A DNA stretch of 64,000 nucleotides. It comes from Pseudonocardiaceae bacterium. Its GTDB lineage: Bacteria; Actinomycetota; Actinomycetes; Mycobacteriales; Pseudonocardiaceae. Under the pieces are notes generated by a model. The model was not told the DNA's origin, did no database searches, and worked only from the letters and a program-made list of their open reading frames with translations. The DNA is taken from contig JBOHFR010000009.1 of assembly GCA_050699715.1 (NCBI GenBank), positions 28,941-92,940 of the forward strand, given 5' to 3'. Shown one piece after another: positions 34,752 to 51,338 of the stretch (position 1 is its first letter; every line of letters starts with the position of its first letter). The position numbers were made by a program, and so were the translations under genes.

Positions 34752-34813
34752 CCCCAGGCGCCGGTTTGGGGACCCAGCCGAATTGTCAGGGTGGGTGGAT
34801 AGCGTGCCGCACC

Positions 34814-36196
34814 ATGGTGAGACTAGCCGCGAACGACCGGAGCACCCACCGCTGTGGTGACTGCGGCCATGAGGTCGCCAAGTGGGTGGGTCGGTGCCCA
34901 GAGTGCCACACCTGGGGCAGCGTGACAGCGCACCGGCCACCACCGGTGACGGCGGTCGCGGCCGGTGCGCCGTCGGCCCCGGCCCGTCCGATCTCCCAGG
35001 TCGACCTGCACTCCGCGCAAGCCACCGCCACTGGGGTGGCCGAGCTCGACCGGGTGCTCGGCGGCGGTCTGGTTCCCGGCGCGGTGGTGCTGCTGGCCGG
35101 CGAGCCCGGGGTCGGAAAGTCCACCCTGCTGTTAGAGGTCGCACACCGCTGCGCGATGGCCGGTCGGCGCGCGCTCTACGTGACCGGCGAGGAGTCCACC
35201 GGCCAGGTCCGGCTGCGGGCGCAGCGCACCGGAGCGCTGCATGACGAGCTGTTTCTCGCCGCCGAGTCCGACCTCGCCGCAGTGCTCGGGCATCTCGACG
35301 CCGTCGATCCGGGCCTGTTGATCGTCGACTCGGTGCAAACCATGTCCTGCGCTGGCGTCGAGGGCAGCCCAGGGGGAGTGTCCCAGGTCCGCGCGGTGGC
35401 CAGCGTGCTGATCAGCGCCGCCAAGCAACGCGGGCTGCCGGTGGTGCTGGTCGGGCACGTCACCAAGGACGGGACGGTGGCCGGGCCCCGGGTGCTGGAG
35501 CACCTGGTCGACGTGGTGCTGCAGTTCGAGGGCGACCGGCACTCCACGCTACGGATGGTTCGCGGGATCAAGAACCGGTTCGGGGCCGCCGACGAGGTCG
35601 GCTGCTTCGAGCTCACCGATGAGGGCATCATCGGCTTGCCCGACCCGTCCGGACTTTTTCTTACCCACCGCGACGGCGCGGTGCCCGGTACGGCGGTGAC
35701 GGTCATCGTGGAGGGCAAACGGCCGTTGCTGGGCGAGGTCCAGGCGTTGGTCGCCGAATCCGCCCTGGCCAACCCCCGCCGCGCGGTGAGCGGCCTGGAC
35801 TCATCCCGGGTGGCGATGATCCTGGCGGTCACCGAGCGCCGAGGGGGCGTGCGGTTGGCGGGGTCAGACGTCTACACCGCGACGGTGGGCGGGATGCGTG
35901 TGGTGGAGCCGGCGGCCGATCTCGCCGTCGCGCTCGCCGTCGCGTCAGCGGCCGGTGACCTGCTACTGCCCCCGCACACGGTGGCGATCGGAGAGGTCGG
36001 GCTGGCCGGAGAGGTCCGGCAGGTGACCGGGCTACGCCGACGCCTGGCCGAAGCCGCCCGGCTGGGCTTCCGGCACGCGCTCGTTCCCCCAGACAGCGCC
36101 CCAGACAGGGCCCCAGACGGCGGTACCCCACCGCCCGGGATGCGCCTGCACATGGTGGCCGACCTCGGGGCGGCGCTGCGCTGGCTGCGCCCGTGA
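34814..36196 (+). CDS. radA: DNA repair protein RadA
   Basis: Zn-finger '[18 protein letters not shown]'. Walker A 'GEPGVGKST'. 'KNRFG'. Lon-like C-terminus. Confidence 0.95.
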
Positions 36197-36228
36197 ACGG
36201 CGCTACCAGTCAAAGATCCGCGCTACGG

Positions 36229-36456
36229 CTATCGTGGCGCGCGTGACACAGCACCCTGTCGCCGCCGCTCGTCACAGCTTCGCCAGAAGGTCAGTGGCGC
36301 GTGCTGCCGACCCGTTTCGACGCCCGCGATGGTGCTACGGCTGTAGGGCAGCTTGTGGGCAAGGCTCCGCTGGGTCTCGCCCGCTGCTTGACGGCGGGCG
36401 GCAAGCTGAGCACCGAGAGCCAGACGAGCCTGGTTGACCACGTGACCGTCTCGCAC
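36229..36456 (-). pseudogene. Truncated XRE-family HTH fragment
   Basis: 'LGAQLAARRQAAGETQRSLAHKLPYSRSTIAGVETGRQ...FWRSCDE' then ends. The C-terminal sensor part seen in the paralogs is absent. Confidence 0.45.
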
Positions 36457-36856
36457 GGTGATCCGCGTCCCTCCTGGATTCCGGGTGGTTGGTTAGCGGA
36501 TTGTCGCAGGCCGCAGGGGTTGGTTGCCGACCACACAGCCAACCATGTCGGATTCCTCATGGCCCCAGGGCCGGGCTGAGCACTCCAGCTGGTGCGGCGT
36601 CCTTCACCTCGTGAGGACGTGTCCCCCACTTACCACCAGTCCGGCCCCCTCCCCGGTCCTGGGTGCCACCCAAGGAAGACGACTCGCGGACAGGCTCGTG
36701 GAGAGCGCGTGGAGCACGACGGCCATCAACCTAGCCCCTACCCACCGAGATCAACCCGCGATCATCCCAGCCACCAGGCAACCCCACCACGGTGACGATG
36801 CCGATGAACAGGGCCAGCGCGCGGTGGCCACGGCGCCCAGCCCTACCATCGGGCGC

Positions 36857-38164
36857 ATGTCGCCGGTGTCTCGTGGACGTACGAGCAAGGGCAAGAAGAG
36901 TAAGACCACCTCCGGCCTGGGGGGTGCCGCGCACCATCGCGCCGATGGCATGCAGGCAGCTCAAGGGCGATCGGTGTTGACGAGGATGCAGTCGCTGCTG
37001 CTGGGTCCGCCGCAGCGGCCAGCGTGGTTCGATTCCTCGATTAAGGCTGTCTTGGATCGGGCTGGTGTCGTAATGGCGGCGCGGGGGCCTCGGGAGCTGG
37101 AACAGGCGACGGCGGAGCTGTTGGGCGCCGAGCTGCACCGCGTCCTCAGGGACGAACGCGAGGGGATGTGGTTCAGCTGGTGGTTCGAGGAGCTCACGGC
37201 GGCCGCGACGGCTCGGATCCGGGAACAGGTGGGCAGCCGGGACGGCGGGTGGGGGCCAGCGTGGCGATTGCTGCACGGTCTCACCTCGATCGGGTCACCG
37301 GCGCTGGCGTCTATAGCGCGCAGCGCGTTGGACCGGGTGAGGAAGGAGTTGCGGGGTGATCCGGTGGTGCGCCAGCAGCCGGACTGGTTACGGCAGCTCG
37401 CGCGGATCACGGCCACCGGTGAGGTGTGGGAGATGCGCGACGCGTACGGCACGCGCATCGCGCTGATCGCTGGTTTCTGCTATCCCGGTGGGGTGGACCG
37501 CTCGGTGTTCCTGTTCGATATCGACGCGTGCGGGATCATCGAGATCGCCTATGCGGGTGTCTTCGACGACGTGGCGCAGGCGGCCACCGCGTGGCGAACG
37601 CTGGTGGGTGATACAGCGGACAGCGCCCAGCCAGAGCGCGTCAAGACGGCGGAGCGCTTGGTCTGCCTCGTGCATTGCGATTCCGGAGAGGACATTCTCA
37701 AGGGAACCGAATCGCGGACGGTGATGGATAACTGGTTCCGGGCGCGTCGCCGGATCCACGATCTCGCGGATGCGCTGCGGAAGCGGGGAATGCCACTGCC
37801 GGCGGCGCGATCGTTGTACCGTAACCTCGACACGGATTCGATGGCAGCGGAATTCACCGACTGGTATGCGCGCCGGCACGGTAGCGAACCCGATCCGGAG
37901 GTCGCCGGTGCGCTGGCAGAGGAGTGGATGGAGGGGGCGCTGCCCGACACCTGGCATGCGGTCTCGCCGCATCGAGTTGAGTTCCAGCTCACGTTGATCA
38001 ACGATTGGATCTCTGATGATCCGATCACCGTCGGGGCGAAGGCACTGTTGCCCGAATGGGTGCGGTGGCACGGTGAGCAAGCCGGCCTGCCCGAGCACCT
38101 TGTCGACCGTGGGGTCGCTGTCGCCGCAGGCGGCGTCGCTCGTGTCACTCAGCGTCTCGACTGA
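36857..38164 (+). CDS. Conserved hypothetical protein
   Basis: Start at 'MSPVSRGRTSKGKKSK' inside ORF 36524..38164. Coding-like bias throughout. No motif recognised. Confidence 0.55.
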   Translation: MSPVSRGRTSKGKKSKTTSGLGGAAHHRADGMQAAQGRSVLTRMQSLLLGPPQRPAWFDSSIKAVLDRAGVVMAARGPRELEQATAELLGAELHRVLRDEREGMWFSWWFEELTAAATARIREQVGSRDGGWGPAWRLLHGLTSIGSPALASIARSALDRVRKELRGDPVVRQQPDWLRQLARITATGEVWEMRDAYGTRIALIAGFCYPGGVDRSVFLFDIDACGIIEIAYAGVFDDVAQAATAWRTLVGDTADSAQPERVKTAERLVCLVHCDSGEDILKGTESRTVMDNWFRARRRIHDLADALRKRGMPLPAARSLYRNLDTDSMAAEFTDWYARRHGSEPDPEVAGALAEEWMEGALPDTWHAVSPHRVEFQLTLINDWISDDPITVGAKALLPEWVRWHGEQAGLPEHLVDRGVAVAAGGVARVTQRLD

Positions 38165-38235
38165 CACGGGGAGAACTTCGGCCACCCGTTCGAGCATCAG
38201 CGTGCCGATTAATTGGGGCGCGTACAATCCACACG

Positions 38236-39180
38236 ATGGAGGACATCGTGGTGCTGCATTACCCCAGTGTGCGATATCCTAACTGGCGGTTGTTATGCGA
38301 AGCCGCGCGGCGCCGTGGTATCCAGCTCACGACGTGGGAACCCCACCGGCTTCAGGTTCACTGCATGGACGGGTGGATCTCGGGCTGTTATGACGGCAAG
38401 CCGGTACGACCGGAAATCGTCCTGCACCGTACAGTCGCGGCATTTCAAGGAATCGTGATTCCAGTGTTAAAAATATGGACATCCGAAGAGACCGTCGTCC
38501 TGAACGAGCCGGACGCCGCGTATCACTCGAGAGACAAGTTGTTGACTTATCTCGCGTTGCATCGCGCCCAGGTACCGATCGTGCACACGGTCGCTTTCGT
38601 TGAGCCGAGCGAAGAGGCCATGCGGCCTCTTGCGGATCATCGGGGCGTGATCCTGAAGCCAGCTCATGGGGTTCGAGGCGAAGGAATCCGCGCTTTTGGG
38701 TCGACGGGTGAGCTCTTAGCGGCCTGGGAGGATGATCTCGAACGGCAGTCTCCTGTGTCACTCGCGAGGGAGCACTACGTTGCCCAGCCTTTAGTGGGGG
38801 GAGGCGGCCGCGACGTGCGCGCTTTCGTGGTGGATGGCTCCTGTGTGGCATTAATGCAGCGCCAAGCGGCTCCCGGCGAGGTCAGGGCTAACCTCACGCT
38901 TGGCGCAACCCCTACCCAGCTTCCGCTAGATCACCCGGCCGCATCGACTGCGGTGGCGGCAGTGGAAGCCTGCCGACTTGACTATGGAGGTGTCGACCTG
39001 ATCGAGGACGACGACGGAACCGTTCGGGTCCTAGAGGTTGACGCGTGGGCTGGCTTCGCGGGTATTTCCGCCGTGACCGGCGAGGACGTCGCGGGCGCCA
39101 TACTCCAACTCGCCGTGACGCGCCGGCTCGGCGGCCCACTGGGAGGCCCGGGAGGCCGACTGGGAGACACAGCCACATGA
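38236..39180 (+). CDS. RimK-family ATP-grasp ligase 1
   Basis: 'DKLLTYLALHRAQVPI', 'VILKPAHGVRGEGI', 'GRDVRAFVVDG', 'GGVDLIEDDDGTVRVLEVD'. AT-richer than its surroundings. Confidence 0.8.
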   Translation: MEDIVVLHYPSVRYPNWRLLCEAARRRGIQLTTWEPHRLQVHCMDGWISGCYDGKPVRPEIVLHRTVAAFQGIVIPVLKIWTSEETVVLNEPDAAYHSRDKLLTYLALHRAQVPIVHTVAFVEPSEEAMRPLADHRGVILKPAHGVRGEGIRAFGSTGELLAAWEDDLERQSPVSLAREHYVAQPLVGGGGRDVRAFVVDGSCVALMQRQAAPGEVRANLTLGATPTQLPLDHPAASTAVAAVEACRLDYGGVDLIEDDDGTVRVLEVDAWAGFAGISAVTGEDVAGAILQLAVTRRLGGPLGGPGGRLGDTAT

Positions 39181-40052
39181 CGCTTGGCATCGCGCGCAAC
39201 CCCTATGCCACGAACGTGCCTACCCGGCTTGCTGAAGCGGCCGCCGAACGTGACATTCCCGTCCGGGTTATCGACCTCCCGACGCTCACCGTCAACATCA
39301 GCGTAAACGGAGAGGCGGTGGTCCGCGACGCGGTGGGTGTTATCGACATTACCAGCCTTGCTCCTTATCTGCTTTTCGGGCACCCGACAGCGGTACACGC
39401 CTTTCGCATACTCTCCCGGCGAGCGTACCTGCAGAACCCGGTAGATAGCGTATTGACAGCGGACGATAAAGCGGCGACAGCGGTACAGTTGGCGCACGCC
39501 GCACTGCCTCAGGTGCCGAGCACTATCTGCCCACTTGACTTGGAAAACGCGCTCACGGCGGCCGGAGAGATTCAGTACCCGGTGGTTATCAAGCGCACTC
39601 ACGGGGCACAGGGTCGATGGGTTCGTCGCTCCGAAAATGCCGCCGCCCTGACGTGGGCCTTTCATGAACTTAAATCCGAGGGGCCTGGGGCGCTGATCTT
39701 ACAACCGGAGGTTACCGAATTCCACGGGCGCAGCATTAGAGCCGTGATAACAGGTGGGCATTTACTGGCGGCGACGCTACGGACAGCCGCCGGAAACGAG
39801 TGGCGAAGCAACATCGCGGGCGGAGCAACGCAGCATCCTGTCGACTTGACACCGAACGAGCGCACGTTGGCTGAGGATGCGGCCCGAGTTCTTGGGCTTG
39901 GCCACGCCGGAATCGACATTGTGCGAACGGCGCGTGGCCCGCTCATCCTTGAGGTGAACTCTTGCCCCGACTTTACGAGCATGCTCCCCTACTTCGGCGA
40001 GGATCTTACCCGAGCCGTGCTGTTGTCATGCCTACCAGCGGCAAGCGGATAG
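39177..40052 (+). CDS. RimK-family ATP-grasp ligase 2
   Basis: ATGA overlap with ligase 1. 'DKAATAVQLAHAALP', 'VVIKRTHGAQGRWV', 'GRSIRAVITGG', 'WRSNIAGG', 'GIDIVRTARGPLILEVNSCP'. Confidence 0.8.
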   Translation: MTLGIARNPYATNVPTRLAEAAAERDIPVRVIDLPTLTVNISVNGEAVVRDAVGVIDITSLAPYLLFGHPTAVHAFRILSRRAYLQNPVDSVLTADDKAATAVQLAHAALPQVPSTICPLDLENALTAAGEIQYPVVIKRTHGAQGRWVRRSENAAALTWAFHELKSEGPGALILQPEVTEFHGRSIRAVITGGHLLAATLRTAAGNEWRSNIAGGATQHPVDLTPNERTLAEDAARVLGLGHAGIDIVRTARGPLILEVNSCPDFTSMLPYFGEDLTRAVLLSCLPAASG

Positions 40053-40312
40053 CCTCTTCTCCCGCGACAGCCCTCGGTGTGCGCGGCCCCGGGCCTGAGA
40101 ACGTTCCTGAGACAGGGCTGTCTGTACGGGCGCCACGCCGATATGCAGCCCGGGCAGGGGGCTGCCTACTATTCGCGAAAACGTGCAACAACACGTCATT
40201 TCGTGTGATCTGGGGCGGGTATCGGCCTCGCTGGAGCCAGGCTGTGACTGCGGCCACGGCGGCGGTGTCCGCCCGTCGAGGTCTTGCCGGGCACCCTACA
40301 CATCCGCTAATA

Positions 40313-40328
40313 TCGAACACATGTTCGA
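40313..40328. promoter_or_regulatory. Perfect actinobacterial SOS (LexA) box-like palindrome
   Basis: TCGAACACATGTTCGA matches TCGAAC-N4-GTTCGA exactly. No obvious SOS gene lies next to it. Confidence 0.4.
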
Positions 40329-40375
40329 ATTTGTTCGGATGGGTCCCCACCGTCACTCGCCGCGAGCGTGGCGGC

Positions 40376-40573
40376 GGGCACGATGATCGAGACCACAACA
40401 CCGCACGCAACCTGGCCGCGCTCGCCGACCAGGCCGTCTCGGGCGAGTTGCGCCCTGACGTGAAACAGCCCGCTGGAAACCCACATCAGACCGCCCTCGG
40501 CGGCACCGGGTACTGCCGCAGGAAGACTCAGATCATGAGTCAACGTCGCCCCCGCGAGGTGGCAGCTCCATGA
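40376..40573 (+). pseudogene. C-terminal remnant of an IS200/IS605-family TnpB (OrfB) gene
   Basis: 'GHDDRDHNTARNLAALADQAVSGE...' resembles the RuvC-III/C-terminal tail of TnpB proteins. No upstream part remains. Confidence 0.45.
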
Positions 40574-40717
40574 GACGTTGTGACACGTTTCGAGGAACGG
40601 TTCGCCGATCACGCACGTCACGAGCCTCGGCGGCGGTAGGTTCTGCATCGACACGGTTCCACGGCCGCCCCGTCCCCATCCTGCCAGAGTCACAGCCCTA
40701 CGAGCCGAAAGTTCACG

Positions 40718-42040
40718 ATGAGCGCTGACTTGCCCGCTGACTTCTTCACCAAGCCGGTCTCCGAGGTCGACCCCGAGATCGCCGAGGTGCTCGCGGCCGA
40801 GCTCTCCCGCCAGGAGCACACCCTGGAGATGATCGCCTCGGAGAACTTCGTGCCGCAGGCCGTCTTGGACTGCCAGGGCTCGGTGCTCACCAACAAGTAC
40901 GCGGAGGGTTACCCAGGCCGGCGGTACTACGGCGGTTGCGAGCACGTCGATGTGGCTGAGCAGCTGGCCATCGACCGGGCCAAGGAGCTGTTCGGGGCCG
41001 AGCACGCCAACGTGCAACCGCACAGCGGCGCCTCGGCCAACGCCATCGTCTACAGCGCGCTAATGGAACACGGCGACACGTTCCTGGGGATGAAGCTCGA
41101 TCATGGCGGGCACCTCACCCACGGCATGCAACGCAACTTCTCTGGGCTGTACTACACCGTGGTGCCCTACGGGGTGGACCGGGAGACCTCCCGGGTGGAC
41201 ATGGACGAGGTTGCGCGGCTGGCGAAGGAGCACCGGCCGAAGATGATCCTCGCCGGCTGGTCGGCCTACCCTCGCCAGCTCGACTTCGCCCGCTTCCGGG
41301 AGATCGCCGATGAGGTGGGCGCCTACCTATTCGTCGACATGGCGCATTTCGCCGGCTTGGTCGCCGCCGGTGAGCATCCCAACCCGGTACCCCACGCCGA
41401 CGTCGTCAGCACGACGATCCACAAGACGCTAGGCGGGCCGCGCAGCGGGATGATCCTCTGCAAGGAGGAGTTCGCGAAAAAGATCAACTCGAGGACGTTC
41501 CCAGGCTGGCAGGGCGGCCCGCTGATGCACGTGATCGCCGCCAAGGCGGTCGCGTTGAGGATCGCCGCGTCGGAGGAGTTCCGGGAGCGCCAGCGGCGCA
41601 CCCGCGCTGGCGCCCACGCGCTCGCCGAGGAGATGCTCAGCGGCGGGCTCACCGTGCTCACCGGCGGCACTGACGTCCACCTGGTCATGGCTGACCTGCG
41701 GGAATCCCCGCTGAATGGGCGCCAAGCCGAAGACCGGCTCGCCGCGATCGGGATCACCGTTAACCGCAACGCGGTGCCCTTTGACCCCCGACCGCCGGCC
41801 GTCGCGTCCGGCCTGCGGATCGGGACCGCCCCGCTGGCCACCCGGGGCCTGCAGGAAGACGACTTCCGCGAGATCGGAAAGATCATTACTGACGCGCTCA
41901 CCGGCGATCTGGACGACGCGGAGCGGGCGTCGCTGTGCGAGCGCACCCGGGCACTGGCCAAGCGCTACCCGTTGTACCCACAGCTTGCACCCAGTCCCCC
42001 AGCGCTCAGCTCCCCAACACCCAGCCCCGAAGGACGGTGA
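40718..42040 (+). CDS. glyA: Serine hydroxymethyltransferase
   Basis: '[39 protein letters not shown]', '[14 protein letters not shown]'. Confidence 0.95.
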
Positions 42041-42045
42041 CATCC

Positions 42046-43251
42046 ATGCCCAACGGACCCCTGCACCTGTTCATCCCCGGTCCGACCAATGTCCCGGACG
42101 CGGTGCGCCGCGCCATGAACGTTCCGATGCAAGACCACCGGGCACCGGATTTCCCTGAGCTGACCCTGCCACTGTTCGCCGACCTGAAGAAGATCTTCGC
42201 CAACGAGACCGGCCGGGTGTTCCTGTACCCGTCCTCTGGCACCGGGGCGTGGGAGGCGGCGATCAGCAACACCCTCAACCGGGGCGACCGGGTGCTGATG
42301 TCGCGTTTCGGCCAGTTCTCCGACCTCTGGGCCAGCATGGCGCAGCGGCTGGGCCTGGACGTGATCTGTGTGGACCGGGAGTGGGGTGAGGGCGTCCCGC
42401 TGGAGGACTATGCGCGCCACCTCGCCGAGGACAACACCATCAAGGGCGTCTTCGCCTGCCACAACGAGACGGCCACCGGGGTGACCTCCGACATCGCCGG
42501 TGTCCGGCGGGTGATGGACGCGGCCGGCTCGGATGCGCTGTTGTTCGTCGACGCGGTGTCCTCGCTGGCGTCGATCCCGTTCGAGCAGGAGGCCTGGGGC
42601 GTCGACCTGGCGGTGACCGGCTCGCAGAAGGGCTTGATGATGCCCCCGGGGCTGTCGATGCTCGGAGTCAGCGCCAAGGCGGTGGAGGCGCACAAGTCAT
42701 CCACGATGCCGCGCTGCTACTTCAGCTTCGAGGACATGCTCAGGACCAACGACCTCGGCTACTTCCCCTACACCCCGCCCACACCGATGCTGCACGGCTT
42801 GCGGTGCTCGCTGGACCTGCTGTTCGCCGAAGGCCTGCCGCAGGTGTTCGCGCGCCACCACCGGCTCGCCGAGGGGATCCGTCGCGGGGTGAGCGCGTTG
42901 GGCTTGTCGCTGTGCGCGCTGGATCCGCGGTGGTACTCCGACACCGTCACCGCGATCCGCACCCCGGAGGGCGTGGACGCCGCAGAGGTCTGCCGGATCG
43001 GCTTCCACCGCTACCGCACGTCGTTCGGGGGCGGCCTGTCCAAGGTGGCGGGCATCGTGTTCCGGATCGGCCATCTCGGCGATCTCAACGAGGTGATGTG
43101 CCTTGCCGCGCTGGCCAGCGCGGAGATGTCGCTGGCCGACGCCGGGGCCAAGGTGGAGCTTGGGGCCGGTGTCGCGGCGGCCCAGGACTACTACCGCAGC
43201 GCGATCACCACGCTGGAGGCCGAGGCGGGCCCCCGAGGAGGAACCAGGTGA
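42046..43251 (+). CDS. sga: Serine--glyoxylate aminotransferase (class V)
   Basis: 'LFIPGPTNVPDAVRRAM', 'NETATGV', PLP-Lys 'TGSQKGLMMPPGL'. Flanked by glyA and malyl-CoA lyase. Confidence 0.85.
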   Translation: MPNGPLHLFIPGPTNVPDAVRRAMNVPMQDHRAPDFPELTLPLFADLKKIFANETGRVFLYPSSGTGAWEAAISNTLNRGDRVLMSRFGQFSDLWASMAQRLGLDVICVDREWGEGVPLEDYARHLAEDNTIKGVFACHNETATGVTSDIAGVRRVMDAAGSDALLFVDAVSSLASIPFEQEAWGVDLAVTGSQKGLMMPPGLSMLGVSAKAVEAHKSSTMPRCYFSFEDMLRTNDLGYFPYTPPTPMLHGLRCSLDLLFAEGLPQVFARHHRLAEGIRRGVSALGLSLCALDPRWYSDTVTAIRTPEGVDAAEVCRIGFHRYRTSFGGGLSKVAGIVFRIGHLGDLNEVMCLAALASAEMSLADAGAKVELGAGVAAAQDYYRSAITTLEAEAGPRGGTR

Positions 43252-44201
43252 GCCACACCCTGTACCCGATGCGCCAGCCCCGGTTGCAACGCAGTGAGCT
43301 CGCGGTGCCGGGATCGAACACCAGCTTCATCGACAAGGCCGCGAAGAGCGCGGCCGATGTCGTGTTTCTCGATTTGGAGGATGCGGTAACCCCCGGTGAC
43401 AAGGAGCGGGCCCGCCGTACTGTCATCGAAGCGCTGCGTGACATCGACTGGGCAGCCACAGGAAAAACCGTGTCGGTGCGGATCAACGGGCTGGACACCC
43501 ACTACATGTATCGCGACGTCATCGACGTGATGGAGCAGGCAGGCGACCGGGTGCACACCATCCTGGTGCCCAAGGTCGGGGTGCCGGCGGATCTGTACTG
43601 CGTGGAAACCCTCATTAACCAGGTGGAGCAGGCCAAAGGTTACCCGAACAAGGTCGGTATCGAGGCACTGATCGAGACCGCGCTGGGAATGGCGAACGTG
43701 GAGGCCATCGCGAGCAGTCCCGGCCGGTTGGAGGCGCTGCATTTCGGGGTGGCCGACTACGCGGCGAGCAACCGGGCCCGCACGGTGAGCATCGGTGGCC
43801 TGAACCCGGATTACCCCGGTGATCAGTGGCATTTCGCGCTGTCGCGGATGATCGTGGCCTGCCGTGCCTACGGACTACGCCCGATCGACGGCCCATTTGG
43901 CGACTTCTCCGACCCCGATGGCTACCGCGCCGGGGCCCGGCGGGCGGCGGCGCTGGGCGCTGAGGGTAAGTGGGCGATTCATCCCAGCCAGATTGAGCTA
44001 GCCAATGAGGTGTTCAGCCCGCCCAAGGCTGAGCTCGACCGAGCCCAGCGCATTGTCGAGGCGCTGGCCGAGGCTGCGGCGCAGGGCAAGGGTGCCGCGG
44101 CGGTGGATGGCAAGATGATCGACGCAGCCTCGGAGCGGATGGCCCAGACGGTGATCGCATTGGACCAGGCGATCCGGGCCGCAACCACCAGCCGGGCCTA
44201 G
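43248..44201 (+). CDS. mcl: Malyl-CoA lyase (HpcH/HpaI / CitE-like)
   Basis: Long identity runs with the remembered Methylobacterium extorquens MclA: '[10 protein letters not shown]', '[14 protein letters not shown]', 'PKVGVPAD', '[15 protein letters not shown]', 'FGVADYAAS', '[23 protein letters not shown]', '[17 protein letters not shown]'. GTG start overlaps the sga stop. Confidence 0.9.
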
Positions 44202-44217
44202 ACTAGAGGGGGCGAGC

Positions 44218-45396
44218 ATGGACATCCACGAGTATCAGGCCAAGGAGATCCTGGCCCGCTTCGGGGTCCCCGTCCCCCGCGGCGGCCTGGCCTACAGCCC
44301 CGAACAGGCATCCTACCGGTGCACCGAGATCGGCGGGTCGGCCTGGGTGGTCAAAGCCCAGGTGCACACCGGTGGCCGCGGTGGCGCCGGCGGGGTGCGG
44401 CTGTGCCACTCCGACCGTGCGGTGCAAGACGTCGCGAGCGACATGTTCGGCCGGCGGCTGGTCACCCGGCAATCCGCGCCGCGGGGCAAGCTGATCTACC
44501 GGGTGTACGTCGAGGAGGCCACCGACATCGCCCGCGAGTTGTACTTCGCGGTCGTGCTGGACCGTCGCATCGAGCGGGTGTGCATCATCACCTCGGCCGA
44601 GGGTGGGGTAGAGATCGAGGAGCTGGCGGCCGCCAAGCCTGAAGCGCTGGTGCGCACGACGATCGACCCCGCGGCGGGCTTCCTGGAGTTCCAAGCCCGG
44701 GAGATCGCGTTCGCGCTGGGCCTGCAATCGGCGCAGATCGCCGAGGCCAGCAGAATTTTCCGGCGCGCGTACCGGGCTTTCCGAGACCTGGACGCCACCA
44801 TGCTGGAGATCAACCCGCTGGCTGTGACGGGCACGGGCGGCATCGTCGCGCTGGACGCCAAGATGTCCTTCGACGACAACGCGCTGTTTCGCCACCTCGA
44901 CATCTCCGAGCTGCGCGACCGCAGCCAGGAGGACGCCAGGGAGAGCCACGCCGCCGACCGCGGGTTGGCCTACGTCAGCCTGGACGGCGACATCGGCTGC
45001 ATGATCAACGGCGCCGGCCTAGCGATGGCGACCATGGATATGATCAAAATCGCGGGCGGGCAGCCGGCGAACTTCCTGGACATCGGTGGTGGCGCGTCGC
45101 CAGAGCGGGTGCTCAAGGCCTTCCGCGCGGTGCTGCGGGACGACAAGGTCAAGACGATGTTGATCAACATCTTTGCCGGCATCAACCGCTGTGACTGGGT
45201 CGCCGAAGGCATCGTGGCCGCGTTCAAGGAGATCGACGTCAAGATCCCGGTGGTGGTGCGGCTGGCCGGCACCCACGTCGAGCGGGGACAGCGGATCTTG
45301 CATGACTCCGGACTGCCCATCATCACCGCGGGCACCCTGGCCGAGGCGGCCCACAAGGCCGTCGCCGTCGTGGGCACCGTCGGTGCCAGCGCCTGA
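44218..45396 (+). CDS. mtkA: Malate thiokinase (malate--CoA ligase) beta subunit
   Basis: SucC-like fold, closely parallel to the remembered M. extorquens MtkA ('[10 protein letters not shown]', 'MLEINPL', '[15 protein letters not shown]', '[18 protein letters not shown]', '[15 protein letters not shown]'), in a serine-cycle context. Confidence 0.85.
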
Positions 45397-45438
45397 GCTG
45401 TCTCAGAGAGGCTCGCTAGAAAGGTCCGCTAAAAGGCT

Positions 45439-46374
45439 ATGGCCATCCTGATCGACGAGCACACCCCCGTGGTGGTCCAGGGCATCACCGGCCGCATCGG
45501 GCGCTTCCACACCGAGGAGATGATCGACTACGGCACCAACGTGGTCGCTGGCGTCACCCCGGGCAAGGGCGGCGAGCGCGCGCTGGACCGTCCGGTGTTC
45601 AACACCATGAAAGACGCCGTGGCGCAAACCGGGGCAAGCGCCTCGATCGTGTTCGTGCCGCCCCCCTTCGCCGCCGACTCCATCATGGAGGCCGCCGACG
45701 CCGGGATCCGGTTCTGCGTCTGCATCACCGATGGCATCCCGATGCAGGACATGATGCGGGTCAAGCGCTACATGCGCCGTTACAAGGCCCAGGGGCGGAT
45801 GACGCTCACCGGGCCCAACTGCGCGGGCACCATCTCACCCGGGCGGGCGCTGCTGGGCATCATGCCCGGGCACATCTACCTGCCCGGACGAATCGGGGTG
45901 ATCGGGCGCTCGGGCACGCTGGGCTACGAGGCCGCGTCCCAGATGAAGGCGCTAGGCATCGGTGTGTCTACCTCGGTCGGCATCGGCGGCGACCCCGTCA
46001 ATGGCACCTCATTCCGCGACCACCTGGAACTGTTCGAAGCCGACCCGGACACCGACGCGGTGGTGATGGTGGGCGAGATCGGCGGGCCGCAGGAAGCCGA
46101 GGGCGCCGACTACGTGCGCGATCACATGACCAAACCGGTGATCGCCTACATCGCCGGGCTGTCCGCCCCCAAGGGCCGCAAGATGGGCCACGCTGGCGCG
46201 ATCGTGTCCGCCGTAGGGGAATCCGCCCAGGAGAAAACGGAGATCCTGGCCGCCGCCGGCATCACGATGGCACCCAACCCGTCGTGCATCGGTGAGACCG
46301 TGGCCCAGGTGCTCGCCGAGCATGGCCTGCCGCTGGAAAACCAGTCTGAGCCTCTGGAGGATCGCCGTGGATGA
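45439..46374 (+). CDS. mtkB: Malate thiokinase alpha subunit
   Basis: '[18 protein letters not shown]', '[16 protein letters not shown]', '[11 protein letters not shown]', '[10 protein letters not shown]', phospho-His region 'MGHAGAI'. Confidence 0.85.
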
Positions 46375-47335
46375 ACCCCTCATCATTGTCACCCGGCGCT
46401 GGCCGGCCCCAGTCGAGGAGCAGCTGGCGCGGCGCTTCGGCCACGTCCGGCTCAACAGTGACGACGTGCCGCTCGGGCCCGACGGGCTGCGCGCCGCGCT
46501 CGAGCAGGCCGACGTGGTGCTGCCCACTGTGTCCGACCGGCTGGGCGCCGAGCTGTTCGACGGCGAGCTGCGGACTAGGTTTTTGGGCAACTTCGGCGTC
46601 GGCTACAACCACATCGACACCGAGGCCGCCGCCAAGGCCGGGATCGTCGTCACCAACACCCCGGGGGTGCTCACCGACACCACCGCAGACACCACGATGA
46701 CCCTGCTGCTGATGGTCGCCCGACGGGCCGGTGAGGGGGAACGCGAGGTCCGCGCCGGACGCTGGACCGGCTGGCGCCCCACCCACATGATGGGCGCCGA
46801 CATCACCGGCAAGACGCTGGGCATCCTGGGCATGGGCCGGATCGGGTTGGCGGTGGCCCGCCGAGGGCACTTCGGCTTCGGCATGCCGGTGGTCTTCTAC
46901 GACCCGGTCGACATCAAGCCCGACCACGGGATCCCCGGCGCCCGCCGGGTCGGCACCGTCGAGGAGGTGCTGGCCCTCGCCGACTTCGTGTCGCTGCACA
47001 TGCCCGGCGGCGGCGGGAACGCCCACCTCATCAACGCCGCAGCGCTGGCCCGGATGAAGCCCACCGCGTTCCTGATCAACAGCGCCCGCGGCGATGTGGT
47101 CGACTCCGCCGCCCTGGTTGAGGCACTGCGATCCGGCACGATCGCCGGCGCCGGGCTCGACGTCTACGAGGACGAACCCGAGATCCCGCAGGCGCTGCTC
47201 GAGCTGGACAACGCCGTGCTGCTACCGCACCTGGGCAGCGCCACCCTGGAGACCCGCACCGCGATGGGCCTGCTCGTCCTGGACAATCTGCAGGCCTTCC
47301 TGGAAGGCCGTGAGCCCCCCTGCCGAGTGGCCTGA
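46367..47335 (+). CDS. hprA: D-2-hydroxyacid dehydrogenase (hydroxypyruvate/glyoxylate reductase)
   Basis: 'GILGMGRIGLAVARR', 'LINSARGDVVD', 'GAGLDVYEDEP', 'LPHLGSAT'. GTG start overlaps the end of mtkB by 8 nt. Confidence 0.8.
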   Translation: MDEPLIIVTRRWPAPVEEQLARRFGHVRLNSDDVPLGPDGLRAALEQADVVLPTVSDRLGAELFDGELRTRFLGNFGVGYNHIDTEAAAKAGIVVTNTPGVLTDTTADTTMTLLLMVARRAGEGEREVRAGRWTGWRPTHMMGADITGKTLGILGMGRIGLAVARRGHFGFGMPVVFYDPVDIKPDHGIPGARRVGTVEEVLALADFVSLHMPGGGGNAHLINAAALARMKPTAFLINSARGDVVDSAALVEALRSGTIAGAGLDVYEDEPEIPQALLELDNAVLLPHLGSATLETRTAMGLLVLDNLQAFLEGREPPCRVA

Positions 47336-47605
47336 TGCCGCCGATGAACGACGAAGCCCTATCTCCTTGACCTGGATATCCGCGCAGACCACCCGTACTC
47401 GGGGTGTTGCGTTCACTACGTGCAGGGATAATAGCTCTCTGTGCACGATTTACCCTCATGAGCGTATGGAATCTTCCCCATTCAGACTAAAAAGTGCCCG
47501 GTTTACCCTAATATTTTTTACTCTGGGTATGACATTCTCGATCTGGCTGGACGCACGCGAGGGCAACCAGCACACTCTGCTCAGTGACGATCCGCGAGCT
47601 GACCG

Positions 47606-48880
47606 GTGATTGATCCGCCCACGCTGTTGCGGGCGATGTTTGACGCGGCGGTGGCGGCGGCGGATCCGCTGCAGCGGGTGGCGCCCTTCCTGCCGGCGCG
47701 GCCACCCGGGCGGGTGGTCGTGGTCGGTGCCGGCAAGGCATCAGCGCGGATGGCGCAGGCGGTCGAGCGGTCCTGGGACGGCCCGTTGAGCGGGCTCGTG
47801 GTGACCCGCTACGGGCACGCGGTGCCGTGCTCACGCATCGAGATCGTGCAGGCGGCGCACCCGGTGCCCGACGCCGCAGGCGAGCGGGCCGCCCGCCGGA
47901 TCCTGGACCTAGTATCCGGGCTCGGTGCGGACGACCTAGCGCTGGCGCTGATCTCCGGTGGCGGCTCGGCCCTGCTGACGCTGCCCGCGCCGGGGATCAC
48001 CTTGGCTGACAAGCAGGCGATCAACACGGCGCTGTTACGGTCCGGGGCGTCGATCGGGACGATGAACCTGGTGCGCAAGCACCTGTCAGCGATCAAAGGC
48101 GGGCGACTCGCAGCGGCGGCGTTCCCGGCTGCCACGGTGGGCCTGCTGATCTCCGATGTGCCCGGTGACGATCCCGCCGTCATCGCCTCCGGGCCCACCG
48201 TGGCGGAGGCGTCCACCCCGGCGCAGGCCCTCGCGGTGCTGGTGACCTGCGGCGTGCCGGTGCCACCGGCGGTGCGGACGCACCTGGAGAGGCGGGCGCA
48301 CCTGGAGAGCACGGCGGGCTGCCCGGGGCCCGACGACCCGCGGCTGGCCCGCGTCACCAACTACGTGATCGCCGCCCCGCAGCAGTCCCTGCAAGCCGCC
48401 GCAGCGGTGGCCCGCCAAGCCGGGGTGACCCCGGTGATCCTGAGCGACTCCCTAGAGGGCGAGGCCCGCGAGGTCGGCATCGTGCTGGCCGGGATCGCCC
48501 GCCAAGTGCGCCGCCACGGCCAGCCAGCGCCCGCGCCCTGCGTGCTGCTCTCCGGCGGCGAGACCACCGTGACCGTGCGCGGCACCGGCCGAGGCGGCCG
48601 CAACGTCGAGTGCCTGTTGTCGCTGGCCCTGGCCCTGCGCGGGGAATCGCGCGTGCACGCCATCGCCTGCGACACCGACGGCGTCGACGGGGTGGAACAG
48701 GTCGCCGGGGCGCTCATCGACCCCGACACCCTGCGCCGCGCCGAACAGCTCGGGGTGAACGCCGCAGCAGCGCTGAACAACAACGACGGGCACGGGTTCT
48801 TCGCCGCGCTAGGCGATCACGTCGTGACCGGCCCCACCCTGACCAACGTCAACGACTTCCGCGCCATCCTCATTACCTGA
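47606..48880 (+). CDS. gck: Glycerate 2-kinase (DUF4147/MOFRL, GckA/TtuD type)
   Basis: 'VVVVGAGKASARMA', 'ISGGGSALL', 'RKHLSAIKGGRL', 'LLSGGETTVTV.GTGRGGRN', 'DTDGVDG'. Confidence 0.8.
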   Translation: MIDPPTLLRAMFDAAVAAADPLQRVAPFLPARPPGRVVVVGAGKASARMAQAVERSWDGPLSGLVVTRYGHAVPCSRIEIVQAAHPVPDAAGERAARRILDLVSGLGADDLALALISGGGSALLTLPAPGITLADKQAINTALLRSGASIGTMNLVRKHLSAIKGGRLAAAAFPAATVGLLISDVPGDDPAVIASGPTVAEASTPAQALAVLVTCGVPVPPAVRTHLERRAHLESTAGCPGPDDPRLARVTNYVIAAPQQSLQAAAAVARQAGVTPVILSDSLEGEAREVGIVLAGIARQVRRHGQPAPAPCVLLSGGETTVTVRGTGRGGRNVECLLSLALALRGESRVHAIACDTDGVDGVEQVAGALIDPDTLRRAEQLGVNAAAALNNNDGHGFFAALGDHVVTGPTLTNVNDFRAILIT

Positions 48881-48922
48881 GGCAAGCAGCTAGCCACGCC
48901 TGGTTCAGCCCAGCCACTGTGT

Positions 48923-49138
48923 TCAGCCCAGCCACTCGGTCAGCACGTCGCGGAGCGCACAGGCCGCAGCCTCGTCGAACGTGATGAGGCAGGAGCCGGT
49001 GACGTGCGGGTCGAGCACGAGCTTCCCGTCGATCAGGCTCACCATCAGGTTGGCGAAACCCATCGGACCCCGGTGCAGCTCACACGTTGCGGGTATGGCC
49101 TTGCGGGGAGGGCGGGCTGGCCATCCTTCGCTGGTCAT
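48923..49138 (-). CDS. Small conserved hypothetical protein (paralog of 8076..8303)
   Basis: See 8076..8303. 71 aa with the shared core 'RKAIPATCELHRGPMGFANLMVS...LVLDPHVTGSC'. Confidence 0.55.
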   Translation of the reverse strand: MTSEGWPARPPRKAIPATCELHRGPMGFANLMVSLIDGKLVLDPHVTGSCLITFDEAAACALRDVLTEWLG

Positions 49139-49516
49139 GGGACACCGACCTTTGCCAGTCTGCGGCTGGTGCTCGCCGCCACCAGATCACCCTGCCGGTG
49201 GGATCGCTACTGGGCGAGCGCTGCGCCGTTGGCACCGCTGGACGGGTCTCGTCAAGCAGGTCACGGTGGTGTGTCAAGCGAGCGACAGTCAGGTTTGTCA
49301 CCGGTGTCCCCGCTAACCTCACGGCATTTTGTGCCCAAAGAGGAGTTTAGCTCCTGTCAGGCTACCCACCTCAGTTCCTGGCTGAGCGGGGCAGCCCCTG
49401 GCGACTCTGAGTACGCCGCCGAGCTCGCGGTGGGCGCCACCGCCCCACGCTCCGGGCTTCGAGGGCCGTCGAGCATCTCTGCCGTCCCGGCCCCGACAAC
49501 CTCAGCCCGCTCGACC

Positions 49517-49711
49517 CTACTTGAAGAACGGTCCCTGACCGAGGACGCAACCGGGCCCAAAATCAACATCGGGGTCCCCGCAGGATGGCGCTGAGGAGTT
49601 GGCACCACCTACCGGAGGCCTCTGATCAGCGGCAGCCACGCCGGCACCAGTAACAACAACCCCACCCAGCACAGCAACGACTGCCAGAAAACGAACAATG
49701 ACTCCTCGCAC
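49517..49711 (-). CDS. Possible small secreted protein (64 aa, GTG start)
   Basis: Signal-like 'VRGVIVRFLAVVAVLGGVVVTGAGVAAA' followed by a Cys-containing tail. Confidence 0.3.
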   Translation of the reverse strand: MRGVIVRFLAVVAVLGGVVVTGAGVAAADQRPPVGGANSSAPSCGDPDVDFGPGCVLGQGPFFK

Positions 49712-49879
49712 GGTGTCCCCCCACGTCCAGTTGTCGGTGAACCGTTGCCCTCGCACACCACCCACCGCAGCAGCGCACGGGCCAAGTGCCCCAGGCCGCT
49801 TGACCGAGCGGTCCAACCCCCCATCGCAGCAACGATCCTACCCGGTGTATCGGGTACGGCCGTGAACTGTTACCGACAG

Positions 49880-50200
49880 CTACTCGGCGCCGTACTGGAA
49901 AACCCCGGGGTTGTCGTGGGAGGTGGGGTCGCCAGTCCGCAGGGTGGCAACGCAGCGCGCCAGCGGGTCGTCTTCGGTGTTCTGCAAGGCGGGTGGGGCG
50001 AAACGGCGGGTGAGGAAGCCGACCAGGTCGAGCGGGTCGGGCCCGGAGTCCAGCAGCGCGATGAGCTCATCACGCTCGTGCAGGGCGACGGGTTCGATGC
50101 CTCCGAAGATCTGTGTCGTGTCACCGGCGGGCACGACGCGGGCGCACACCAACGCGCCCGCCGTGAACGCCTGACTGGCCGTCCACTCCCGGACCTGGTA
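49880..50200 (-). pseudogene. 3' fragment of an unknown gene truncated by the IS6 element
   Basis: The coding-like reading frame runs into the IS left inverted repeat. The N-terminal part of ORF 49880..50293 lies inside the IS and is spurious. Confidence 0.4.
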
Positions 50201-51079: not shown

Positions 51080-51119
51080 TCCTCCCCGTTGAATGATCAC
51101 GAAAGCAACTTCAGGTTCG

Positions 51120-51338
51120 TCATTCATCCGTCTCGGCTATCTTGACAATGCTCACATCCGCTAAGGGCATGCCGGTCCGCACCGCTACCATCGCGGTCGC
51201 ATAACGGTCATCTATTATCTCTCCGCGTGGAACGTCCACTTTCAATTCTCGGTGCCGATCATGTGGATGTTTACCGTTCTTGTACACAATGGTCCTGGCG
51301 ACCAGCCCTCTATTCTTCTTGCTCTTGGTGTGTTTCAC
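51120..51338 (-). CDS. Small basic hypothetical protein in an AT-rich patch
   Basis: 72-aa ORF 'MKHTKSKKNRGLVARTIVYKNGKHPHDRH...'. Local GC is far below the window average. Confidence 0.4.
   Translation of the reverse strand: MKHTKSKKNRGLVARTIVYKNGKHPHDRHRELKVDVPRGEIIDDRYATAMVAVRTGMPLADVSIVKIAETDE

Follow-up and report, generated by a model that had tools for sequence, protein, structure and literature searches.

Does an uncultured actinobacterium carry a working serine cycle, and where would such a pathway have come from? The question is raised by seven intact, closely packed genes (glyA, sga, mcl, mtkA, mtkB, hpr and gck) at 40718-48880 on the plus strand of a 64-kb window, the window being the whole stretch of DNA analyzed here. 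The host record is entered as 'MAG: Pseudonocardiaceae bacterium', an uncultured soil actinobacterium, and carD, ispD, radA, cysS and lsr2 flank the cluster, in agreement with a sequence-only reading of this DNA that had described a serine-cycle gene set in an actinobacterium. Its account of the layout also held: all seven ORFs are present on one strand, intact and of the identities it had given. The intergenic gaps from glyA to gck are, in order, +5, -4, +16, +42, -8 and +270 nt, within one base of the -8 to +41 nt and 270-bp spacer that it had listed.

Enzyme assignments

Mcl, a malyl-CoA lyase (43248..44201, +; 317 aa), begins with a GTG codon and overlaps the sga stop by 4 nt. It shares 66% identity with the Methylobacterium extorquens enzyme of known structure (PDB 5ugr; E = 3e-124) and 48% with Mcl1 of R. 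sphaeroides, and malyl-CoA lyases are its closest relatives among solved structures. A CitE-type lyase was rejected as its identity (180 bits on the CitE equivalog, cut-off 443), and the RipC equivalog failed too. Many Mcl homologues are annotated 'citrate lyase beta subunit' by JGI. MtkA (44218..45396, +; 392 aa), the beta subunit of malate--CoA ligase (malate thiokinase), scored 651 bits on the NCBI equivalog NF010647, 'malate--CoA ligase subunit beta' (cut-off 604), versus 533 bits on the SucC model, whose own, lower cut-off it also exceeded. It is 58-69% identical to alphaproteobacterial MtkA proteins encoded beside mcl, versus 50% to E. coli SucC, and PGAP labels a protein identical to it 'malate--CoA ligase subunit beta'. 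The alpha subunit MtkB (45439..46374, +; 311 aa) matched SucD-family models in the profile search, in which no separate Mtk-alpha model came up; its identity to alphaproteobacterial mtkB products is 71-80%, and it keeps the GHAGA phospho-histidine motif at residues 250-254. The sequence-only reading had allowed that 44218..46374 might fall within bona fide succinyl-CoA synthetases and 43248..44201 within CitE enzymes, and neither placement was found. The likeness to M. extorquens that it described was borne out directly for Mcl and only indirectly for MtkA, through NF010647, a model presumably built around M. extorquens MtkA.

GlyA (40718..42040, +; 440 aa), a serine hydroxymethyltransferase (SHMT), scored 586 bits on NF000586, matched PF00464 and has M. 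tuberculosis SHMT as its best solved relative (3h7f, E = 5e-173); judged by sequence, glyA is of actinobacterial type and lies outside the alphaproteobacterial core described below. Sga (42046..43251, +; 401 aa) is a class-V aminotransferase of the serine--glyoxylate aminotransferase type. Both the MAG gene call and homologues back a start at 42046 over the 41935 of the longest ORF. Its best solved relative, 6pk1 (E = 2e-115), was deposited as 'Serine--glyoxylate aminotransferase' and is the plant photorespiratory enzyme; identity to sga genes upstream of mcl in alphaproteobacterial loci is 52-68%. Hpr (46367..47335, +; 322 aa) overlaps mtkB by 8 nt, this start being supported over the longest ORF, which opens at 46292. 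It is a D-2-hydroxyacid dehydrogenase of the glyoxylate/hydroxypyruvate reductase (GhrB-like) family (PF02826 and PF00389) whose closest solved relatives are the archaeal glyoxylate reductases 6bii and 2dbq (E = 1e-69), with the Hyphomicrobium D-glycerate dehydrogenase 1gdh further away (E = 3.5e-50).

Between hpr and gck lies an AT-rich spacer of 270 nt (47336..47605) with two copies of TTTACCCT. It has no significant fold (z = -0.18) and no Rfam match, is much shorter in relatives (1-76 nt in loci L088 and L089) and is possibly a promoter or operator region inside the operon. Gck (47606..48880, +; 424 aa) is a glycerate 2-kinase of the DUF4147/MOFRL family (PF13660 and PF05161), with 2b8n, deposited as 'glycerate kinase, putative', as its best solved relative (E = 2e-79). 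With the DUF4147 gene product at the corresponding position in Aminobacter it shares only 36% identity; as far as homology can tell, gck differs in origin from the core and is not a co-transferred gene.

Origin and age of the cluster

The order sga-mcl-mtkA-mtkB(-hpr) is common to about 70 proteobacterial loci, nearly all of them alphaproteobacterial. In neighbor-joining trees, drawn from the 80 loci with the greatest similarity to the query and therefore biased in sampling, the actinobacterial sequences are monophyletic (bootstrap 98/100 for Mcl, 60/60 for MtkA and 60/60 for Sga), and each of the three clades is nested among alphaproteobacterial sequences. The MtkA and Sga clades largely share one sister group (L013, L017 Rubrimonas, L023 and others), which the actinobacterial Mcl clade adjoins. 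The shared gene order and the nested clades support a horizontal origin, one of the options raised from sequence alone, and suggest that the five-gene core sga-mcl-mtkAB-hpr was taken from Alphaproteobacteria long ago. That option stands for these five genes, which look alphaproteobacterial, but not for glyA and gck, which do not. We propose that an ancestor shared by several Pseudonocardiaceae received the core in a single block transfer from an alphaproteobacterial donor, the nearest relatives of this donor among those sampled being of Rhodobacterales type; a glyA of actinobacterial type and a gck from a separate source would have been gained afterwards, and in the host lineage the cluster would since have been inherited vertically beside radA under purifying selection.

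The cluster is an old acquisition and not a recent island, because it occupies the same site after radA in related species, its synonymous divergence resembles that of radA, and dN/dS is low. It directly follows radA, a conserved chromosomal anchor (34766..36196, +; assigned by Pfam and syntenic in related loci), in four further loci, all from related MAGs (L006, L087, L088 and L089). Synonymous divergence to L088 is 0.49-0.72 for the cluster genes versus 0.61 for radA, and dN/dS is 0.08-0.31 across all cluster genes (0.13-0.17 for glyA). The cluster is common in uncultured Pseudonocardiaceae and not unique to the host genome. In the window, a segment of about 4.4 kb with low GC3 (36200..40598, +; 0.67 versus 0.89-0.92 in the cluster) separates radA from glyA; it lies outside the pathway, is absent from L088 and L006 and contains genes for two RimK-family ATP-grasp ligases and an unknown protein of 546 aa, along with an ORF of 109 aa. 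The RimK portion (window 38222-40031) has a counterpart of 76% identity between mtkA and mtkB in L087, where the cluster is broken up and only a fragment of hpr is present.

Proposed one-carbon assimilation and its alternatives

We favor, at a probability of roughly 0.55, a functional serine-cycle assimilation operon whose core was acquired once from an alphaproteobacterium. Going by enzyme family, GlyA would combine glycine with methylene-THF to give serine, and Sga would pass the serine amino group to glyoxylate, yielding hydroxypyruvate and regenerating glycine. The GhrB-like reductase would then form D-glycerate, and the glycerate 2-kinase 2-phosphoglycerate, which leads to PEP; carboxylation to oxaloacetate and reduction to malate would depend on ppc and mdh elsewhere in the genome. 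MtkAB would convert malate into malyl-CoA, which Mcl would cleave to glyoxylate, returned to the cycle, and acetyl-CoA for biomass. The C1 donor is likely to be THF-bound C1 from formate and/or methylated amines.

In the 64-kb window, Pfam scans of most called flanking ORFs found no ppc, ftfL, folD/mtdA/fch or C1 dehydrogenase, and tblastn, whose queries from relatives covered FDH-alpha but neither methanol nor methylamine dehydrogenase, found no accessory C1 gene; nor is any N-methylglutamate-pathway gene present there. The lack of mtdA/fch, ppc and methanol/methylamine dehydrogenases remarked on earlier thus holds for the window. The 10-kb flanks of the cluster in the closest relatives contain housekeeping genes only. 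Further afield, the Pseudonocardia nigra locus comprises FDH-alpha, folC, glyA, ppc, sga-mcl-mtkAB-hpr, folD, a TMAO-permease-like gene and an mgsC-like gene, and that of Saccharopolyspora mangrovi ftfL, sga-mcl-mtkAB-hpr, folD and pntAB. A Haloechinothrix MAG joins mgsABC-like genes, a TMAO permease and purU (both passing their equivalogs) to sga and mcl, and Pseudonocardia sp. N23 has kept only mcl-mtkAB, beside P450 and LigB genes.

Because the neighbors in these relatives are ppc, ftfL, folD, purU, folC, formate dehydrogenase, TMAO permease and N-methylglutamate-synthase-like (mgsABC-like) genes, C1 assimilation is favored over a purely C2 role. Such a role, a salvage or assimilation module for glyoxylate, glycolate or 2-phosphoglycolate, is possible but rather unlikely. 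As the plant C2 cycle does, Sga, GlyA (with glycine cleavage), Hpr and Gck would turn glyoxylate into phosphoglycerate by way of glycine, serine, hydroxypyruvate and glycerate, and Mcl with MtkAB would run in the condensing direction, from glyoxylate and acetyl-CoA via malyl-CoA to malate and ATP, replacing malate synthase. The match of Sga to 6pk1, the relatedness of Hpr to glyoxylate reductases, the gene content of N23 and the lack of C1 genes in the window would fit this, as would a need for phosphoglycolate salvage in the abundant RuBisCO-bearing trace-gas oxidizers among uncultured Pseudonocardiaceae (bioRxiv 10.1101/2024.05.30.596735). Against it, no glycolate oxidase/dehydrogenase, phosphoglycolate phosphatase, glycine-cleavage or RuBisCO gene adjoins the cluster in any locus examined, and glyoxylate condensation needs no ATP-dependent Mtk. 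The same neighbors disfavor the reverse route from malate that had been offered as the other option, in which MtkAB and Mcl would split malate from the TCA cycle into acetyl-CoA and glyoxylate and thereby supply glycine, serine and C1 units from C4 acids, much like a reverse glyoxylate shunt. All its steps are thermodynamically feasible for this enzyme set, the operon opens with glyA and sga, and the window holds no C1 input gene, but Hpr and Gck would be pointless in it, even though purifying selection acts on both and the cluster retains them, and the ppc, ftfL and folD genes clustered in relatives point to net assimilation of C1 plus CO2. We know of no organism that uses this route as a dedicated biosynthesis, and consider it improbable.

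Least credible of all, and largely refuted, is that the genes are mis-assigned (a succinyl-CoA synthetase, a CitE-like lyase and an unrelated aminotransferase and dehydrogenase) or form a decaying foreign island. The SucC-level score of MtkA, the SucD-only matches of MtkB, the JGI label and the broken L087 cluster could be read that way, but the malate--CoA ligase equivalog scored highest and was passed, the CitE equivalog failed, Mcl closely matches an experimentally solved Mcl, every ORF is full length with low dN/dS, and gene order is conserved across phyla.

Several observations weigh against the C1 reading itself. The window itself contains no accessory C1 gene, and those described come from other genera and not from the closest relatives; the enzymes are all reversible or multi-purpose, and the same set could process glyoxylate; and Hpr is nearer to glyoxylate reductases than to the Hyphomicrobium enzyme. 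Pseudonocardia dioxanivorans, a cultured family member, is cited for RubisCO-based C1 metabolism, which also counts against a serine cycle. Our literature search found no paper on this cycle in Pseudonocardiaceae. The serine-cycle reading suggests that some Gram-positives may make their cell material out of one-carbon compounds through a pathway regarded as characteristic of Proteobacteria.

Comparison with known systems

Sga is related to BhcA of the beta-hydroxyaspartate cycle (BhcABCD) of Paracoccus denitrificans, but BhcA was rejected as its identity (553 bits on NF045640, cut-off 650); homologues of bhcB, bhcC and bhcD are lacking here, and Mcl and Mtk are foreign to that cycle. M. extorquens AM1 has the same enzyme set as the window, arranged as sga-hpr-mtdA-fch and mtkA-mtkB-ppc-mcl with glyA and gck elsewhere. 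In contrast, the window has a single compact seven-gene operon without mtdA, fch or ppc, a GhrB-like reductase and no adjacent QscR-type regulator, and M. extorquens Mcl is the first ingroup branch in the neighbor-joining tree, outside all other sampled sequences.

The cultured P. nigra DSM 104088 (NZ_JAHKRK010000022.1) and S. mangrovi S2-29 (NZ_JAWLNX010000002.1) belong to the same monophyletic actinobacterial clade and share the sga-mcl-mtkAB-hpr core. For the five core proteins, identity to the window ranges over 72-84% in P. nigra and 68-79% in S. mangrovi (lowest for Hpr, 68%). Within or next to both clusters lies folD, accompanied by ppc in P. nigra and by ftfL in S. mangrovi, and the P. 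nigra cluster also has FDH-alpha, folC, the TMAO-permease-like gene and the mgsC-like gene nearby. None of these is in the window, whereas gck is in the window cluster and absent from theirs.

Plasmid pAM01 of Aminobacter sp. MSH1 (NZ_CP026266.1, 175489-182212) carries six genes, sga-mcl-mtkA-mtkB-hpr-gck, in the order and orientation of the window. Identities are 63% for Sga, 75% for Mcl, 66% for MtkA, 72% for MtkB and 63% for Hpr, the last annotated 'D-glycerate dehydrogenase' there, and both Mcl proteins are of the short type, which lacks a loop of some 12 residues found in M. extorquens Mcl. The pAM01 operon adjoins mgsABC and a gene annotated glnT (type III glutamate--ammonia ligase), a gmaS candidate, and operons of this type also occur in Mesorhizobium, Sinorhizobium megaplasmids, Hyphomicrobium, Roseovarius and Labrys. 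Where the alphaproteobacterial operon lies on a plasmid or chromid, the window cluster, without adjacent pntAB, mgsABC or gmaS-like glnT, has an actinomycetotal host, is chromosomal beside radA and has glyA joined at its front.

Gene order and enzyme assignments

Seven intact ORFs on the + strand make up the cluster at 40718–48880: glyA (40718–42040), sga (42046–43251), mcl (43248–44201), mtkA (44218–45396), mtkB (45439–46374), hpr (46367–47335), which encodes a D-2-hydroxyacid dehydrogenase, and gck (47606–48880), which encodes a DUF4147/MOFRL glycerate 2-kinase. The measured gaps, from glyA to gck, are +5, −4, +16, +42, −8 and +270 nt. Gene set and spacing are thus as the sequence-only reading had described them; the sole adjustments are the likely starts of sga and hpr, which follow the public gene calls for identical contigs instead of the longest ORFs. 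Of two public MAG contigs that overlap the window, one (GCA_975255985.1) is 100% identical across 34218–55396. Database entries that match the encoded proteins exactly (MGH38656xx) are labelled "MAG: Pseudonocardiaceae bacterium".

The 270-nt spacer between hpr and gck (47336–47605) is AT-rich and contains two TTTACCCT repeats approximately 55 nt apart, while the corresponding spacer is just 1–76 nt in the related MAGs L088 and L089. It could be an internal promoter/operator or an insertion scar. Its predicted fold is not significant, no sigma-70-like promoters were detected around the cluster, and terminator-like sites there do not exceed the number expected from shuffled sequence. Rfam gave no matches around the cluster at the gathering threshold (ZTP, THF and glycine riboswitches included) and, at E ≤ 1 across 40000–49500, a single chance sRNA match. 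Riboswitch or leader control was rejected on these scans.

Two alternative identities that had been raised from the sequence, succinyl-CoA synthetase for MtkA and the citrate-lyase subunit CitE for Mcl, fail on curated cut-offs. MtkA scores 651 bits on the equivalog NF010647 "malate--CoA ligase subunit beta" (cut-off 604) versus 533 on SucC models, an identical protein carries the same name in PGAP, and its identity to mcl-linked alphaproteobacterial MtkA is 58–69%, compared with 50% for E. coli SucC. For MtkB the matches are SucD-family models, and the GHAGA phospho-histidine motif is retained. A plain succinyl-CoA synthetase was rejected on these cut-offs, and MtkAB is predicted to be a malate thiokinase. 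Mcl is 66% identical to the solved M. extorquens malyl-CoA lyase 5ugr (E = 3e-124) and 48% identical to R. sphaeroides Mcl1, and falls below the equivalog cut-offs for CitE (TIGR01588, 180/443) and RipC (170/375). A citrate lyase was rejected on the TIGR01588 score and because citD and citF are missing from the cluster; Mcl is a probable malyl-CoA lyase, distinct from CitE and other HpcH-family lyases.

Sga has as its best solved relative 6pk1, deposited as "Serine--glyoxylate aminotransferase" (E = 2e-115), and shares 52–68% identity with the gene that precedes mcl in alphaproteobacterial loci, which supports its putative assignment to the same activity. A beta-hydroxyaspartate cycle was rejected, since the BhcA score (553) lies below the cut-off of 650 and bhcB, bhcC and bhcD are missing from the cluster. 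GlyA is a serine hydroxymethyltransferase homologue (586 bits on NF000586, cut-off 335) closest to the M. tuberculosis enzyme. Gck belongs to the DUF4147/MOFRL glycerate 2-kinase family; among solved structures it matches 2b8n (Thermotoga TM1585; deposition title "glycerate kinase, putative") best, and it scores below archaeal equivalog cut-offs. GlyA and Gck would thus supply the hydroxymethyltransferase and glycerate kinase activities. The hpr product, a member of the D-2-hydroxyacid dehydrogenase family, is a putative GhrB-type glyoxylate/hydroxypyruvate reductase that scores under every NCBIfam equivalog cut-off; its sequence resembles archaeal glyoxylate reductases more than it does Hyphomicrobium glycerate dehydrogenase 1gdh, and it is 63% identical to the "D-glycerate dehydrogenase" in the equivalent operon slot of Aminobacter.

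Ancestry and age of the cluster

Homologous loci were collected with Mcl from one genome per GTDB species, and the best 80 of about 600 or more matches were used. Among the matches listed, the closest are from Pseudonocardiaceae: MAGs at 95% and 88% Mcl identity, a Haloechinothrix MAG (85%), Pseudonocardia nigra DSM 104088 (84%), an Actinophytocola MAG (83%), Pseudonocardia sp. N23 (82%) and Saccharopolyspora mangrovi (79%). The remaining loci of the 80 are proteobacterial, mostly from Alphaproteobacteria at 71–79% identity (including Mesorhizobium, Aminobacter, Hyphomicrobium, Roseovarius, Labrys and Rhodobacterales MAGs), with five labelled Gammaproteobacteria or Pseudomonadales and one, L009 (79%), labelled only "uncultured proteobacterium". 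The order sga-mcl-mtkA-mtkB is common to approximately 70 of the proteobacterial loci, and in about 10 of them hpr directly follows mtkB.

In neighbour-joining trees of these 80 similarity-selected loci, the actinobacterial Mcl, MtkA and Sga sequences are each monophyletic (support 98/100, 60/60 and 60/60, respectively) and all three clades are nested among alphaproteobacterial sequences. The MtkA and Sga trees largely share a Rhodobacterales-type sister group, which the actinobacterial clade adjoins in the Mcl tree. The nested clades and the shared gene order support the proposed horizontal acquisition of the module. Gck shares only 36% identity with the DUF4147 gene of Aminobacter. The simplest reading is that sga-mcl-mtkAB-hpr would have been transferred as a single block from an alphaproteobacterium, and that an actinobacterial-type glyA and a different gck were recruited afterwards. 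In the donors the operon often resides on megaplasmids or chromids, five of which are predicted to be conjugative. A tblastn search of PLSDB returned 36 plasmid records, in which every named genus is proteobacterial (Aminobacter, Sinorhizobium, Paracoccus, Ruegeria, Paraburkholderia and others); plasmid carriage in Actinobacteria was rejected because no actinobacterial record appears among the 36, one first-word group of which is not shown.

In related MAGs (Mcl approximately 90% identical) the upstream order is lsr2-spoU-cysS-ispF-ispD-carD-PCuAC-radA, followed by glyA-sga-mcl-mtkA-mtkB-hpr-gck and then MFS-ROK; in the relatives L006 and L087, too, the cluster lies downstream of radA. The flanks in the window carry typical actinobacterial housekeeping genes (lsr2, spoU, cysS, ispD, carD, a PCuAC-like gene and radA). 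Compared with L088, the cluster genes of the window have a synonymous divergence of 0.49–0.72 and radA one of 0.61, and dN/dS is 0.08–0.31 for every gene in three comparisons. Because dS resembles that of radA at a shared site and dN/dS is low, the cluster is taken to be vertically inherited and maintained by selection, and these comparisons show that it is ancestral at the radA-adjacent site. Public metagenomes contain more than 120 distinct 90%-identity protein clusters that are at least 88% identical to Mcl, and most of the organism-named ones are labelled Pseudonocardiaceae.

A recent genomic island or composite transposon was rejected: direct and inverted repeats within 36–56 kb are chance-level short matches with no flanking repeats, the IS6-family (DDE_Tnp_IS240) transposase at 50214–50978, which stands among short hypothetical ORFs 1.3 kb past the end of gck, is single and unpaired, and relatives share the radA-adjacent site with dS equal to that of radA. 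A tRNA-Lys(UUU) gene (− strand, 55742–55815) has no integrase beside it. GC3 is 0.89–0.92 in the cluster, 0.63–0.89 in most other called genes of the window and 0.67 in the inserted flanks. High GC3 was rejected as a sign of foreign origin, since the cluster itself is colinear with relatives and the DNA missing from them consists of two additional low-GC3 insertions, 21861–32243 and 36200–40598.

Inserted and neighbouring DNA

The 10.4-kb insertion at 21861–32243 lies between cysS and ispF/ispD and is missing from L006, L087 and L088. It encodes an Exo_endo_phos-methyltransferase fusion, LysR-like and dCTP-deaminase-like proteins, an HTH protein, two proteins of no family, a cysteine desulfurase (approximately 410 bits on PADLOC DndA/SspA) and a PPDK-like PEP-utilising enzyme that lacks the N-terminal part. 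It may be a DNA-modification or defence island. The second low-GC3 segment (36200–40598, between radA and glyA) encodes an uncharacterised 546-aa protein, two RimK-family ATP-grasp ligases and a 109-aa ORF. The ligases were treated as generic RimK-family proteins, since a match of 115 bits against a cut-off of 350 rejects H4MPT:glutamate ligase (MptN). In L087 the RimK pair recurs as a 76%-identical copy inserted between mtkA and mtkB (12625–14691); there hpr is only a fragment, and a gene for a large serine recombinase is close by. L006 retains a 156-nt cassette remnant upstream of glyA. The cassette thus appears mobile, with a repeated association with this locus.

A further MAG contig, L001 (GCA_975304515.1), was compared with 40677–55396 of the window. 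It is identical from mtkA onward (dS = 0), differs in glyA, sga and mcl (dS 0.16–0.26), and is unrelated upstream of 40677. Either co-occurring strains have undergone homologous recombination within the operon, or the MAG contig is chimeric. Elsewhere, three genes resemble conflict systems: a TIR-domain protein (936–1931), a WD40 plus Roc/Ras GTPase protein (1712–3988) and a 1345-aa nSTAND1 NTPase with approximately 14 WD40 repeats (10463–14500). The region 56904–63457 encodes an alpha/beta hydrolase, a vWA-MoxR-associated protein (VMAP-M2), an AAA ATPase and a 1159-aa PknG-like Ser/Thr kinase with rubredoxin and TPR domains, and upstream of it are an NsdA-family regulator (52892–54454) and a SLOG/LOG-like protein (54485–54967).

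Candidate functions and comparison with known systems

The cluster fits C1 assimilation and C2 (glyoxylate) processing alike, and the window alone cannot separate them. Pfam scans of most called flanking ORFs and tblastn with the relatives' accessory genes found no ppc, ftfL, folD/mtdA/fch or formate dehydrogenase in the 64 kb, the Pfam scans found no methanol or methylamine dehydrogenase in the parts covered, and malate dehydrogenase, which together with PEP carboxylase would close the cycle, was not found in the window. Loci in other genera are more informative. In P. nigra, FDH-alpha (TIGR01591 passed) and folC are divergent from glyA-ppc-sga-mcl-mtkAB-hpr, in which ppc passes NF000584 (842/815), and hpr is followed by folD, a sensor kinase, a TMAO-permease-like gene and an mgsC-like gene. 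The order in S. mangrovi is ftfL-sga-mcl-mtkAB-hpr-folD-pntAB, and in the Haloechinothrix MAG sga-mcl come after mgsABC-like genes, a TMAO permease that passes NF053774 and purU, which also passes its model. The recruited neighbours in these Pseudonocardiaceae, genera other than the window's own lineage, are without exception serine-cycle or THF-C1 genes.

Since these neighbours belong to C1 metabolism, and no glycolate oxidase, glycine-cleavage or RuBisCO genes were seen beside the cluster in the loci examined, we favour a true serine cycle, for which formate or methylated amines would supply the THF-bound C1, with a probability of roughly 0.55. Salvage of C2 compounds, which the enzyme set would also serve, is ranked second and considered rather unlikely given the same neighbours. 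Running the route in reverse, from malate to glycine, ranks third and is improbable. Mis-annotation or decay of the cluster genes comes last and is very improbable: all seven ORFs are intact with dN/dS well under 1. A broader proposal builds on the favoured serine cycle: Pseudonocardiaceae of a widespread, uncultured soil lineage, along with cultured relatives such as P. nigra and S. mangrovi, might be genuine serine-cycle methylotrophs, the first documented outside Proteobacteria and among Gram-positives, that captured an alphaproteobacterial operon, rewired it with native glyA and gck, and use THF-bound C1 from methylated amines or formate, possibly beside trace-gas oxidation or CO2 fixation. 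We regard this as possible and put it forward tentatively.

The Haloechinothrix MAG (L014, 1–6149) and P. nigra (L019, 17379–20867) share a TMAO permease (the L014 copy passes the equivalog model, and that of L019 is 79% identical to it), a conserved 153-aa protein of no family and an N-methylglutamate-synthase-subunit-C-like gene, all adjoining serine-cycle genes; L014 additionally has mgsA-like and mgsB-like genes and purU. This gene content points to a putative methylated-amine catabolism in Pseudonocardiaceae. Pseudonocardia sp. N23 (7342–13073 of its locus, L008) has only mcl-mtkA-mtkB, without sga or hpr, beside a cytochrome P450 and a LigB-type extradiol dioxygenase. Here the lyase/thiokinase pair may have a different role, possibly in glyoxylate handling.

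If an actinobacterial family abundant in soil has an intact, selected serine-cycle module at operon level, more taxa would be able to consume methylated amines, formate or methanol than are now listed, and the transfer of an entire central-metabolic operon between phyla would have a clean example. Cultured carriers exist (P. nigra DSM 104088 and S. mangrovi S2-29, in which the cluster occurs with ppc or ftfL/folD), which opens the idea to direct testing. Engineers of synthetic C1 pathways or of a reverse glyoxylate shunt could also draw on the compact operon as a set of Gram-positive-adapted parts.

The serine cycle is generally regarded as proteobacterial. Arthrobacter and Mycobacterium reportedly assimilate formaldehyde by the RuMP cycle, according to a study of Gram-positive methylamine utilisers, and Amycolatopsis methanolica uses the same cycle. 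N-Methylglutamate-pathway genes are present in methylamine-utilising Mycobacterium (PMC5023230), and a reference title names RubisCO-based CO2 fixation/C1 metabolism in Pseudonocardia dioxanivorans. A full-text literature search, with subscription-only papers outside its reach, found no paper that describes a serine cycle or mcl/mtk from Pseudonocardiaceae or from elsewhere in the Actinobacteria. Among the closest parallels is plasmid pAM01 of Aminobacter sp. MSH1, which like the window encodes, in this order, an aminotransferase, a CoA ester lyase, malate--CoA ligase beta, a SucD-like alpha subunit, D-glycerate dehydrogenase and a DUF4147 protein; unlike the window, it continues with mgsABC and a gene annotated glnT (a gmaS candidate). 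The enzymes and operon architecture are already known as the alphaproteobacterial serine-cycle module, whereas the host phylum, the chimeric seven-gene form and the spread in Pseudonocardiaceae are new here.
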